Shown: positions 12,450 through 19,194 of the stretch, one piece after another
How positions within the stretch are numbered: the first letter of the stretch is position 1
Layout of the letters: each line of letters opens with the position of its first letter
NCBI GenBank assembly: GCA_019056805.1
Contig: DXJG01000005.1
Coordinates: 1 to 32,000, forward strand
DNA from: Candidatus Baldrarchaeota archaeon
Lineage (GTDB): Archaea > Asgardarchaeota > Baldrarchaeia > Baldrarchaeales > DXJG01
Reading direction: 5' to 3'
DNA length: 32,000 nt
Translations under genes and position numbers: made by a program
Notes under the pieces: generated by a model
The model's database searches: none
Seen by the model: only the letters and a program-made list of their open reading frames with translations
What the model was told of the DNA's origin: nothing

Positions 12450-12850
12450 AATAAAACCTCCCCAAATTTTAATACTAATTGCTATAGCTAACTTACTCAT
12501 CTGGTCATAAAAAATTTACTAATTTCCCTTTTCCAATGAAACCTATACATAAATCAATGCCAACACGGTTAAGAAAATGTATCGAAATACCTTGCGTAAA
12601 TTATTTCAATGCCGCTATATTAACATTTGATTTGAAAGTAGAACCTAAATAGCGACAAAATATAGATTTATAATAACGAAATTAACAATACTGTCGGGAA
12701 AACGTCAGTAAAATTATTAAAAACATCTTAACTAGTAATTTATATGAAGTTTTACAACAGAAGTTTAAAGTCAAGTTTTACATACATAATTCAATCTGAA
12801 AAGTTTAAGTATGATAAATAATTTATTGAAATCGAATTCTCCGATGCTCT

Positions 12851-12979
12851 GCGGGGGTGGCCGAGCCAGGTCAAAGGTTGCTAAAGGCCGATTAAAGGCG
12901 CAGGACTGAGGCACCCTCTTTTAGGGCTCGAATCCTGTGGCGCAGGCCTGCGTGGGTTCAAATCCCACCCCCCGCACCA
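12851..12979 (+). tRNA. trnL: tRNA-Leu(GAG) with two introns: D-loop 21/22 (12875-12895, 21 nt) and anticodon loop, best fit 38/39 (12913-12932, 20 nt; a 37/38 reading would be 12912-12931)
   Basis: Acceptor GCGGGGG/CCCCCGC, discriminator A, encoded CCA, anticodon stem CAGGA/TCCTG, long variable arm, T-arm GTGGG-TTCAAAT-CCCAC. Both inserts fold into bulge-helix-loop-type splice motifs. Confidence 0.92.
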
Positions 12980-13344
12980 ACAATATAATTATTAGTATAT
13001 GTCCTAGGATTTTATATAAGATTTTAATCTATGAATTCGACTTTTGATCTTAACTTTCCATTTTTTAACATATTATTGCTGGTGCTTTTATATGCGAGTG
13101 AAATGAGGAATGTTTTATAATTTTGCAATGAATGTTTCGACAAAGTTATAAAATAATGTTGACATTGTTTTAGTAATCAGGGGTGTGAAATTGTACTTTA
13201 AAGCATTACTTGAAATCTGTATATGCCTAATAACTTCGGAGACACCGTATGATAGTAGTACTTAACACACATTCCAGGTTGAAAAGTACATAGAAGGGAA
13301 GTTCTTTAGCCCGTTTAGGTGTAAAAGGATGTCAGAGAATTTTT

Positions 13345-13905
13345 GTGAAAAAAGTAAAAATAACAAATTTAAGGGACATATTTAAACAATTACCAAAAAA
13401 TTTTATTCTCCTAGTTATAAGTTCCGTGGAGAACTATATTTCTGCCAATCTTGAAATTCTGCGAGTTTTGTTAAATGAAATGAAAATTTCTGGAGTTTAT
13501 ATTACAATCAATAGACCTTATGCCAGTTTATGCAAAATATTAAAACAGAATGGCATCAATATAGAAAAATTGTATTTTATAGATTGTGTTTCAAGTTTAG
13601 CTGGAATGCCGGTTGAAAAAACAGAAAAGTGCCGTTTTCTTAAAGGTCCATCCGCTCTCACAGACATCGGAATAGATCTTAGTGAACTCATGGAAGAAAT
13701 CAAGAAGCCGTGTTTCCTATTTCTAGATTCAATCTCAACTCTATTAACCTATAACAGTGCAGAAGCTGTTGTTTCATTTTCCCATCTGCTAATTACCAAG
13801 ATGAGACTTAAAGGACTAATGGGAGTTATCATCACTTTGGAAAAAGAATCTGAGCCTTATAAAATAATAACCCAATTTTGTGATAAAGTTATAGAGGTGA
13901 AATAA
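13345..13905 (+). CDS. Inactivated KaiC/RecA-superfamily ATPase domain protein
   Basis: Keeps GVYITINRP, LYFIDC, Walker B FLFLDSIS and FCDKVIEV. The Walker A position reads ISSVENYI, with no GxxGxGKT. Confidence 0.75.
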   Translation: MKKVKITNLRDIFKQLPKNFILLVISSVENYISANLEILRVLLNEMKISGVYITINRPYASLCKILKQNGINIEKLYFIDCVSSLAGMPVEKTEKCRFLKGPSALTDIGIDLSELMEEIKKPCFLFLDSISTLLTYNSAEAVVSFSHLLITKMRLKGLMGVIITLEKESEPYKIITQFCDKVIEVK

Positions 13906-14246
13906 TGTCTGAATGGAATGAACTAGGAAAGTTGGAAGAGATAAAAGCTCTTCTTGTACTGGATAAGGAAGGAAGAGAAGTCTATTCTAAAATACCCAAG
14001 AAATATGAGAAATTGAGAGAATGGGCTAAAGAATTTAATGAATTGATTAAGAATACGTTCAAGGAATTAAAAGCCGCTTCAAGACAAGTTACTATTGACT
14101 ATTTTAATGGCAAAATAGCAATCGTTCGTTGCTTGGAAGAACATGTCATTTTTTTAACCTCAGAATTAATCGATATGGAGAAGTTATGTAAAAAAATTAG
14201 AGAGATCGAGATTGCAAAAAAGATAGAAGATGTATTGAGGCTTTAA
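13905..14246 (+). CDS. Roadblock/LC7-like protein 1
   Basis: 113 aa with a roadblock-like pattern: helix, ALLVLDKEGREVYS hairpin, long helix, QVTIDYFNGKIAIVRC strands, terminal helix. The ATG overlaps the upstream stop. Confidence 0.65.
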   Translation: MSEWNELGKLEEIKALLVLDKEGREVYSKIPKKYEKLREWAKEFNELIKNTFKELKAASRQVTIDYFNGKIAIVRCLEEHVIFLTSELIDMEKLCKKIREIEIAKKIEDVLRL

Positions 14247-14247
14247 T

Positions 14248-14592
14248 ATGAGAACGAGATTTAAAAAAAGGATAGAAGATATAGAACCAATGGTAACTGC
14301 CTTTTTGCACGTTACAAAAGATGGAAAAGTACTCGAACAAACAAAATCGGAAAAAGCACCTAAAATCACAGCAAAGTTTCTATCTAATTCCGTAAAACTC
14401 GTAGAATTGGCGTGTGAACTTAGTTCTGAGTTTAATTTGGGTAGCCTCCAAACAATAAGTATGATGGGGAAAAAAGGAAAACTTGATTTGCATATCCTCC
14501 TACATCCCAGCTCACCAGATCTTTTTGGTATCATCTTTACTGAAAAGCCAAGCCTTGAGGAAAAAATTAAGAAAGCTTTCAAGGGGTTATAA
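14248..14592 (+). CDS. Roadblock/LC7-like protein 2
   Basis: 114 aa: AFLHVTKDGKVLE, helix, GSLQTISMMGKKGKLDLHIL (the G.l..i.i.g..g roadblock pattern). Starts 1 nt after the upstream stop. Confidence 0.65.
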   Translation: MRTRFKKRIEDIEPMVTAFLHVTKDGKVLEQTKSEKAPKITAKFLSNSVKLVELACELSSEFNLGSLQTISMMGKKGKLDLHILLHPSSPDLFGIIFTEKPSLEEKIKKAFKGL

Positions 14593-14594
14593 AA

Positions 14595-15229
14595 GTGACT
14601 CTACTTGAACAATGGCTATACTGGACACAAATCGCCTGTATAGTAATGTCAACTGTATTGACAGGGTTCATGGGGTATATATACCTCCTTAAAAGGGACC
14701 CCCCATTCTTATATGGGCTCTTGCTTGGTGTGTTGTTGCTATTAGAATAACTATTGGTTTATTTTTTCCATTCAGCTTTATAAGGGGCTTCATAAATGAT
14801 TTCCTAACCATAAGTCATGACTTGCTCTGGATCTTAGGATTAGCAGTGTTATTAGAAATGGGGAAAAAAGGAAAAGTGTATTTTCCTGTGCTATACCCCT
14901 CGACACATTCTATAATAAGTGCATTATCCTACTTTTACCTCGGTTCCAAAGTGTACGGAGCCATTGAAACCACGATTTTCGCTCATCCCATACTCCTGTT
15001 TATACTTTCTTGGTATTTTCACATATGTGCAAAAGTTACAAAAAACCTTGGTGCAAGAATTATCAGCATATCCTTCCTACTTTGGGCCTTTGACTACATA
15101 ATATTTGGAATACCATACTTTGGAATGGGAATAACAATCGCAGGAGCCATAGGCTGGTCCATCGGCCTTATCTTTAGAGTAACAATTTTCATAGGATTTT
15201 TAATGATGACAGTGAGAAAACAACATTAA
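14595..15229 (+). pseudogene. 7TM membrane protein (about 211 aa if joined) split by a -1 frameshift at the C6 run 14699-14704
   Basis: GTG 14595 opens a 51-aa hydrophobic ORF that stops at 14748-14750. The -1 frame is open from 14693 to 15229 (the ORF track shows only 14822-15229). The join at GAC CCC CCA gives YLLKRDPPILIWALAW and seven hydrophobic segments. Confidence 0.75.
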
Positions 15230-15818
15230 TGAAGTTCTGAAAAATAGTGCTTAGATAGGGATCTCTGCGAAACACCCAAAGCAACATTGGAATAGTTGGT
15301 CGCAGCTAAATTTAACATCAAAATCTTTAACTGTCCATGTCTTTAGGCGATGCAGCTTGGTTTGCCGACGACCTCCTATTCAAAATCGAAGTAGGCGGAA
15401 AAATCATGTAGGTACAATGCGGAAGATCCGATGTTTTTGAGAAGGATCCAGTAAATGGCTAAATTATACAAGGTTACTTATTTCTTCCATCTACGAAATA
15501 ATGCTAAAATAATACAACTTATTACTTAAATCAATGACAGATCATTCAGAAATTACAGTAGTAACTAGTAAAATTCTTGCGTCATAAGTATAATTAAAAG
15601 CACTTTCCAAAATTACTGGATACTCAAGACTTACCTTAGCTTATATTGCTGTATTTTTCTCCGTTCTCATGACACAATCACCCACACAGATTGAAAGTAG
15701 CTATTAAAAAATATAGTAAAAAAGGTATTTACAAAGTTTTTTGCTTAAAACATGCCAACAAAAATACGATACAATGAAAAATATACAATATAATGAAGAT
15801 AAATTTAAAAATCGTTAT

Positions 15819-15826
15819 TTTATAAT
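15819..15826 (+). promoter_or_regulatory. Candidate TATA box for the GC-rich micro-ORF island
   Basis: TTTATAAT with an A-rich BRE-like segment upstream, about 25 nt before the island. Motif-only evidence in AT-rich DNA. Confidence 0.3.
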
Positions 15827-15851
15827 ATTATAATGAGAAAATAAGATAGAA

Positions 15852-15924
15852 GATCCCACGGGGGGTGATCGCCATGTGGGTGACACCCCTCGTGACCACA
15901 TGGAGTGACAGACCACCTCCATAA
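15852..15924 (+). other. GC-rich structured island containing an SD and a 16-aa micro-ORF (15874-15924, MWVTPLVTTWSDRPPP)
   Basis: 44/70 G+C by my count in very AT-rich surroundings. 11-bp stem 15857-15867/15884-15894, perfect 8-bp complement 15872-15879/15896-15903, SD GGGGGTGAT 4 nt before the ATG, TATA-like TTTATAAT at 15819-15826. Confidence 0.55.
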
Positions 15925-16115
15925 AATGTTATTTTGATATCTATTTTTTAAGTAAAAAATACTCCTCATAAAACCGCTTTTCTAGGAATTTCTAATATTA
16001 AAATATCAACCGTTGCCTTGTCTTTTAATTTACATATTGTTATCTATTTCTTTCTGAAATTCTTAAAATGCGTTGATTTTTATATTTCTAGTTTAAAATT
16101 AAAAAGTTTGAAGAA

Positions 16116-16231
16116 TGGAGCCGCCGGCGGGATTTGAACCCGCGACCACCGGATTTCTCGCTTTCGTTACGCATTAAAGTTACGAGTCCGGCGCATTCGG
16201 CTATTTTTTCTACCAGCTGTGCTACGGCGGC
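16116..16231 (-). tRNA. trnT: tRNA-Thr(CGT) with two introns: D-arm 22/23 (16196-16209, 14 nt) and canonical 37/38 (16155-16180, 26 nt)
   Basis: Acceptor GCCGCCG/CGGCGGC, T discriminator plus CCA, D-stem GCAC/GTGC restored after splicing, anticodon stem CCGGA/TCCGG. Strict BHB at 37/38 (CUCG/CGAG with CUUU/AAAG). Confidence 0.93.
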
Positions 16232-16319
16232 TTTTCCTCGTTTTTTTAAAAAAATAGATAAAACTTAAAGTTTTCGATTGACATTTATAGTAAAAGGACT
16301 GGTCATGGTGGTGTTTTGT

Positions 16320-19047: not shown

Positions 19048-19156
19048 TGGCGGGCCCGGTGGGATTCGAACCCACGACCACCGGCTATCTCCGGATAGCT
19101 TAGAAGGCCGGCGCCCTTTCAGGTTTTTGATTGTTATCCTGCTAGGCCACGGGCCC
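19048..19156 (-). tRNA. trnR: tRNA-Arg(TCT) with two introns: D-loop 20a/21 (19118-19135, 18 nt) and canonical 37/38 (19087-19100, 14 nt)
   Basis: Acceptor GGGCCCG/CGGGCCC, G discriminator plus CCA, anticodon stem CCGGC/GCCGG, central splice helices CAGG/CCUG and CUUC/GGAG. Confidence 0.93.
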
Positions 19157-19194
19157 GTTTTGGTTTAATGATTAGATATAATTTTGATTTATAT

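Follow-up and report, generated by a model that had tools for sequence, protein, structure and literature searches.

In the 32,000-nucleotide stretch of DNA analyzed here (the window), what is the short GC-rich island that stands within a long AT-rich gap: a gene for a structured RNA, a very small coding frame, an RNA switch, or a feature with no function at all? The source genome, of the class Baldrarchaeia within the Asgard archaea, has a GC content of 35.5%. The gap measures 889 bp and extends from the end of an ORF at 15229, part of a four-gene module, to a tRNA gene at 16119. The core of the element occupies 66 nt of the + strand (15857-15922) and has a GC content of 62%, compared with 12-18% in its flanks. 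An initial annotation, made from the letters alone, had described such a GC-rich island in such a gap and had read in it an SD-like run, an ATG, and a 16-codon frame closing on RPPP-stop; both the composition and the letters are as it gave them. Across four DNA sequencing runs, one contig was identical over 15795-16017 and no variants were seen.

The element is present in a single copy in its own genome. The initial annotation had proposed a search for homologs, and this yielded six variants, all from Baldrarchaeia genomes or metagenome contigs. Searches by BLAST and with a covariance model seeded on the three copies found first recovered the element in three of five Baldrarchaeia species genomes. 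Two genomes without it, G002 and G003 (82-84% complete), also lack the neighboring thiL gene and are uninformative, the locus probably being unassembled. The covariance model returned no copy from 146 other Asgard genomes sampled, and a search of viral contigs gave zero matches to the element. A strict pattern scan of genome contigs produced only two matching records, both Candidatus Baldrarchaeota MAGs, while pattern scanning of metagenome contigs supplied five further loci, and walking from ThiL homologs added one more variant, L036, on a MAG contig. The six distinct sequences fall into approximately three deep lineages, namely the window, the G001 group (G001, L031, L032, and L036), and G004, and the element is conserved at 75-86% identity amid AT-rich flanks that cannot be aligned. 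ThiL of the window is 73% identical to its homolog in G001 and 49% identical to that in G004, a divergence at which neutral sites should be saturated. The latter homolog (L038, at G004:C56:110428-111420) contains one in-frame TAA, which a pseudogene, a sequencing error, or the presence of two genes could explain.

The genomic setting of the element varies among its relatives. The syntenic locus lacks the element on the related contigs L033 (ThiL 94% identical) and L035 (74%), even with search filters off. When L033:1900-3010 is set against 12850-16280 of the window, the KaiC-like/roadblock/7TM four-gene module and the element are both absent, and a PNPOx-like gene fills the place between the same two tRNA genes, so that the inter-tRNA segment is a variable spot. 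Wherever the element occurs, its downstream neighbor is convergent: tRNA-Thr in the window, G001, L031, L032, and L036, and a PaREP1/HEPN gene in G004. This arrangement bears out the earlier remark that the element is not a classical attenuator. The other neighbors in G004 are a P-type ATPase fragment and a saccharopine-dehydrogenase-like gene, and inspection of this neighborhood for functional linkage revealed no aIF5A or translation gene. The saccharopine-dehydrogenase-family gene of G004 lies on the same strand, approximately 1.5 kb upstream of the G004-type element (L028:11833-13032, - strand). Carboxy(nor)spermidine dehydrogenases, which act in polyamine synthesis, belong to the same family. 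No member of the family is found near the element in the window, and no link is claimed. Further tRNA genes at 12851-12979 (+) and approximately 19059-19160 (-) flank the region; they fall below the Rfam tRNA threshold and give only weak tmRNA-clan matches (18.3 and 12.6 bits, respectively). ARAGORN reported zero tRNAs across the whole window, presumably owing to multiple or non-canonical introns.

Sequence signals on both sides of the core suggest where a transcript might begin and end (Table 1). A TATA-like box had been placed about 25 nt upstream in the initial annotation. An A/T box does lie at 15826-15833, but it probably spans the start-site region; the TATA box that is conserved is the more distant one, about 50 nt upstream of the stem, and in each of the six variants it precedes the ATG by 66-70 nt. 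The motif A(T/C)GA(A/G)AAA follows approximately 28-30 nt past the TATA start and is likewise kept in every variant. Downstream of the frame, the T-run noted earlier is a T6 and is accompanied by a T4, and two such runs are found in all six variants at 3-14 nt and 16-26 nt past the stop position. The description of the island as a discrete conserved unit with promoter-like and terminator-like signals of its own thus applies to each of the six, and signals laid out in this way would suit an archaeal transcription unit that stands alone and measures approximately 100-115 nt.

Table 1. Features of the element and its immediate surroundings (positions in the window)
Feature	Position	Strand	Basis
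TATA box TTTAAAAA (TATAAATA in G004), purine-rich stretch AAGATA just before	15804-15811	+	Aligned, kept in 6/6 variants; putative promoter
Predicted start-site region and unstructured purine-rich 5' leader, about 20 nt	15834-15856	+	Conserved motif position; predicted start site
Hairpin 1: 11 bp, bulged A (15868), 5 bp, apical loop AUGUG (15874-15878)	15857-15894	+	MFE; folds in 6/6 variants
SD-like run GGGGGGTGATC, within 5' strand of hairpin 1	15860-15870	+	Anti-SD pairing
16-codon ORF MWVTPLVTTWSDRPPP, TAA at 15922-15924	15874-15924	+	Putative frame; translation unproven
Spacer between hairpins, ACCAC, 5 nt	15895-15899	+	Length constant, sequence variable
Hairpin 2: 8 bp, bulged C (15916), loop ACAGAC (15908-15913), invariant core GTGACAGACC (15905-15914)	15900-15922	+	MFE; conserved in 6/6 variants
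Oligo-T runs: T4 (15932-15935) and T6 (15944-15949); likely archaeal terminator	15932-15949	+	Predicted termination
Convergent intron-bearing tRNA (tRNA-Thr)	16119-16231	-	Rfam RF00005 match; missed by ARAGORN

The core folds far better than expected of its composition. Folding of the + strand gives z = -4.25, with none of 200 dinucleotide shuffles as good, compared with z = -1.2 for the - strand, and the many G-U pairs of the structure assign the element to the + strand. The 11-bp stem that the initial annotation had drawn over the SD-like run is present in the MFE structure and extends to about 16 bp, with 15857-15873 paired to 15879-15894. The SD-like run lies wholly within this stem, and the start codon provides the first three bases of the loop, of which the AUG is an invariant part while the following two bases vary in G004. 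Double-sided compensatory pairs in hairpin 1 (indexed on the ungapped 3' strand) include GU/UA/UG/GC, AU/UA/CG, CG/UA, and GC/AU. In the alignment, 91.5% of hairpin 1 cells are paired, falling to 42-53% when partners are slid. In the G001 group the spacer pairs with the leader, making hairpin 1 longer.

The second hairpin proposed in the initial annotation is also found in the MFE structure; the CACCTCC that it had read there as an anti-SD mimic is not conserved, its equivalents in other variants being CACCCCC, CACCACC, and CGCCTCC. Paired cells in hairpin 2 amount to 94.4%, and the pair 15904-15918 appears as AU, GC, or GU among the variants, with GA in G004. The core GTGACAGACC is invariant, and the loop and closing pairs of hairpin 2 are unchanged across family-level divergence, even at the third positions in the codons for Gly, Asp, and Arg. 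Because synonymous third positions are unchanged at such divergence, the loop of hairpin 2 is constrained as RNA sequence.

The RNAalifold consensus computed on a MAFFT alignment consists of the two hairpins and nothing else, with 92.4% of cells paired; displacing the partners by 1-3 columns lowers this to 42-53%. Column shuffles reached the observed paired percentage in 3 of 500 trials, the covariation score in 17 of 500, and the three double-sided pairs in 67 of 500, these being weak to modest covariation statistics drawn from six sequences and about three deep lineages. A terminal stem joining the purine-rich leader to the U-rich tail appears in the single-sequence fold and is absent from the consensus fold. 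Kissing between the loops (UGU of hairpin 1 with ACA of hairpin 2) was also considered and was set aside, as the loop of G004 is changed without compensation.

The known classes of RNA do not accommodate the element. In Rfam 15, zero matches fall on it at the gathering threshold, and permissive settings give only matches of E = 1.7-6.6 at 10-14 bits, against thresholds of 45-219. A tRNA, tRNA half, or tRNA-derived fragment was rejected, as ARAGORN finds nothing and the Rfam tRNA model matches only at 16119-16231. Neither CTGA nor TGATGA occurs on the + strand of 15853-15926, and GTGATC is replaced by GTGGTC in three variants, which disposes of a box C/D sRNA. An H/ACA sRNA is likewise excluded, since hairpin 1 is continuously paired (bulges of at most 1-3 nt) and contains no pseudouridylation pocket, K-turn, or tandem G-A pairs; the sole conserved ACA of the element is located within the loop of hairpin 2 and not 3' of a lower stem. 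On inspection of the six variants by eye, a K-turn, a T-loop, and a tRNA half were each rejected. A leader-peptide transcription attenuator was rejected for want of a same-strand gene downstream and of alternative folds of comparable stability. In a search for a trans target, the genome contained no second site complementary to GTGACAGACCACC at one mismatch or fewer, and a literature search for Baldrarchaeia small RNAs or a matching Asgard RNA found nothing. The suggestion in the initial annotation of a new ncRNA or small gene is in keeping with the lack of any match to an Rfam family, a tRNA, or a mobile element.

Judged from its sequence and that of its relatives, the element is a real small gene, conserved, restricted to one lineage, and folded at the level of the RNA, and it represents a new family. 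In kind it comes closest to the small GC-rich RNA genes known from thermophilic archaea with AT-rich genomes; should it be translated, the bacterial dual-function sRNAs would be the nearest counterpart. The archaeal genes were found by GC-content scanning in Methanocaldococcus and Pyrococcus (for example, HgcC/E/F/G in Rfam), and most of this class turned out to be H/ACA RNAs. The element resembles them in being a short GC-rich island with its own TATA box and oligo-T runs, stable hairpins, and tRNA neighbors; it differs in having no Rfam match and no H/ACA features and in carrying an SD-AUG-ORF module.

The explanation favored here, to which about an even chance may be assigned on these comparisons, is that the element is a stand-alone gene for a new structured small RNA specific to Baldrarchaeia. 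Transcription would probably begin about 28-30 nt past the TATA box and end at the two oligo-T runs, producing an RNA of approximately 100-115 nt with a single-stranded purine-rich leader, a 16-bp hairpin, a 5-nt spacer, and a hairpin with an ACAGAC loop. Selection would act on the RNA itself, keeping pairs through compensation and keeping the sequence of the loop. The likeliest mode of action may be that hairpin 2 and the SD-like strand of the structured RNA are recognized, whether by a protein or by the ribosome. The combination of SD, AUG, and 16-codon frame would have arisen incidentally from the G-rich strands of the stem, or else would be secondary and normally kept shut by hairpin 1. 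This reading is favored by the compensatory pairs, the invariant loop of hairpin 2, the loss of the stop codon in L036, and the locking of the SD in a stem. It is weakened by the anti-SD match at the preferred spacing, the invariant AUG, the frame free of indels, and the synonymous bias. Between an RNA that acts only as RNA and a frame that is translated, the odds are near even, and we slightly favor the former.

The alternative that survives best takes the element for a small structured mRNA with a translated micro-ORF, or for a dual-function RNA, and is a serious contender that nonetheless falls somewhat short of an even chance. According to this explanation the 30S subunit binds the SD once hairpin 1 opens (co-transcriptionally, by heat, or with a helper), and a 16-residue peptide with a slow, aIF5A-dependent W-G/S-D-R-P-P-P-stop end is made, the output being either the peptide or the stalled ribosome. 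The initiation signals are striking. With G-U pairs counted, the run GGGGGGTGATC pairs without a break over 11 nt of the 16S tail GAUCACCUCCU, a tail verified on the 16S gene of G004. (The MAG of the source genome, G000, is missing a recognizable 16S 3' end, as nothing in it matches the conserved motif GTCGTAACAAGGTA; its long ORFs are nevertheless preceded by a very clear SD signal, GGAGGTGAT, and SD-led initiation appears to be common in the lineage.) In the sequences that precede 1099 long ORFs, GGAGG is most frequent at -13/-12 and GGTG at -11 to -9. The GGTG of the element is found at -10, the spacing from the ATG that the genome prefers, in agreement with the SD placed 5-10 nt before the start codon in an SD-led gene. 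At least 10 anti-SD pairs occur in just 2 of the 1099 long ORFs, and at least 9 in none of 1668 random ATGs. The 11-nt match of the element ties for the longest genome-wide, and in a genome that uses SD-led initiation it is matched or exceeded by only 2 of the 1099. Across the variants the complementarity measures 8-11 nt, an A-to-G change retaining a G-U pair with the 16S tail. When the same genome was scanned as a whole, at least 9 anti-SD pairs in front of a TTG were also reached by G-rich strands of several tRNA genes. Since tRNA strands score in this way too, SD-likeness is far less improbable in a GC-rich structured RNA.

The frame itself gives similarly divided testimony. None of the six variants has lost the SD complementarity, the spacing, the AUG, the length of 16 codons, or the C-terminal W-(S/G)-D-R-P-P-P. 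The 51-nt frame contains no indels in any variant, several being found in the 5' strand of hairpin 1 and in both flanks. Six columns vary over the final seven codons and the stop, and the changes in four of them are synonymous or stop-to-stop, a bias confounded, with few lineages available, by structure-neutral changes from A-U to G-U in hairpin 2. The stop codon is retained in five of six variants, as TAA in four and as TGA in G004, the most distant. Against translation, the stop is lost in L036 (CAA), where the frame runs on through the T-runs for approximately 45 extra codons. Codons 2-9 do not encode a conserved peptide and change non-synonymously in ways that are RNA-compensatory, and the invariant synonymous sites in the loop of hairpin 2 are not explained by coding alone. 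The antisense frame over the element is likewise open in five of five variants tested, so openness of the frame alone means little. There is no downstream gene to regulate, and the contig of a close relative (L033) has no element at the same locus.

Access to the SD also speaks against the micro-ORF: the 16-bp GC-rich stem buries it in every variant, and in the folding model this stem still has a free energy of -8.6 to -10 kcal/mol at 85 C. The full pairing of the SD in a 5' hairpin, which would gate translation, recalls SD-sequestering RNA thermometers and type I toxin mRNAs. The stem of the element is far more stable than that of a thermometer (about -9 kcal/mol at 85 C), and its peptide is not of the hydrophobic membrane type seen in type I toxins, nor is there a heat-shock or toxin context. 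Dual-function bacterial sRNAs that carry a small ORF include SgrS/SgrT, RNAIII/hld, and SR1/SR1P. The element shares with them the form of a stand-alone structured small RNA with a ribosome-binding site and a very short frame; it differs in being archaeal, in having an ORF of 16 codons and no base-pairing target found, and in that its translation is only putative.

A more specific version of translation would make the element the first archaeal ribosome-arrest micro-ORF, an idea that must be considered improbable. The AUG in the hairpin loop would be translated, and a stall at W-G-D-R-P-P-P-stop would report the status of aIF5A (hypusine), polyamines, or Pro-tRNA, with the stalled complex or the remodeled RNA serving as the signal and no downstream cistron required. 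Pro-Pro-Pro and a C-terminal Pro before the stop slow peptide-bond formation and termination. Bacterial ribosomes are arrested by RAPP and RGPP motifs, the two named as effective arrest forms (PMC10951233, PMC12992588). R-x-P-P and Pro-stop are likewise known as stalling contexts (PMC10951233, PMC7897499). Like arrest peptides, the frame of the element has a variable N-terminus and a conserved W-x-D-R-P-P-P followed by a stop; its RPPP, invariant in the six variants, fits R-x-P-P without being one of the two forms named as effective. Unlike it, RAPP-type arrest peptides and attenuator leader peptides are bacterial or eukaryotic and are found upstream of a regulated gene on the same strand, a Sec/YidC gene in the RAPP type; moreover, one natural variant of the element has no stop, and stalling is putative.

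Explanations that deny the element a role as RNA are less probable still. A decaying remnant, a palindrome bound by protein at the DNA level, or a chance GC island could be envisaged, given that the syntenic locus of L033 and L035 has no element and that GGTGATCACC, in the 5' strand of hairpin 1 in G001 and L036 (window place 15864-15873), is a perfect 10-bp palindrome with a GATC core. Each of these would have to contend with 75-86% identity surviving among unalignable flanks, with conserved promoter and terminator signals, and with compensatory changes and many G-U pairs that work only as + strand RNA. Outside G001 and L036, the palindrome (in the window, GGTGATCGCC) depends on G-U pairs, which are impossible in DNA, and a non-functional or DNA-level feature is quite unlikely.

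The weakest candidate, retaining hardly any probability, is the bistable, pseudoknot-like switch of the initial annotation, or a leader-peptide attenuator, in which interleaved pairings (the hairpin 1 stem, CCATGTGG with CCACATGG, and hairpin 2) would alternate and translation of a leader would decide among them: CCATGTGG and CCACATGG are indeed complementary in the window, and the hairpins are built of similar strands (GGGGUGA and CACCCC types) that make a swap of partners conceivable, but the pairing of CCATGTGG with CCACATGG is peculiar to the letters of the window, is absent from the MFE structure, and shrinks to CCAT/ATGG (4 bp) in the other five variants, while the best folds that free hairpin 1 by barring its 3' strand from upstream pairing are 13.2-19.2 kcal/mol worse in all six, the consensus fold is two hairpins, the next gene is convergent, and no riboswitch family matches. 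A classical attenuator or riboswitch is excluded on the same fold evidence and because nothing follows on the same strand.

The structured small RNA thus stands as the preferred reading, with the translated frame as its principal competitor, and what the element means for the biology of Baldrarchaeia depends on which of the two applies. Asgard archaea are the closest prokaryotic relatives of eukaryotes, and to our knowledge almost nothing is known of their small RNAs and small ORFs. The narrow distribution of the element makes its present value moderate. It nevertheless constitutes a cleanly delimited conserved candidate, with putative promoter, two hairpins, and putative terminator contained in approximately 150 bp, and it could be synthesized directly. 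As a plain structured RNA, it would supply a new family for the annotation of Baldrarchaeia genomes. Should the frame be translated and ribosomes stall at RPPP-stop, archaea would have a first example of a sensing device based on a nascent peptide or linked to eIF5A, and the interest of the element would be wider.
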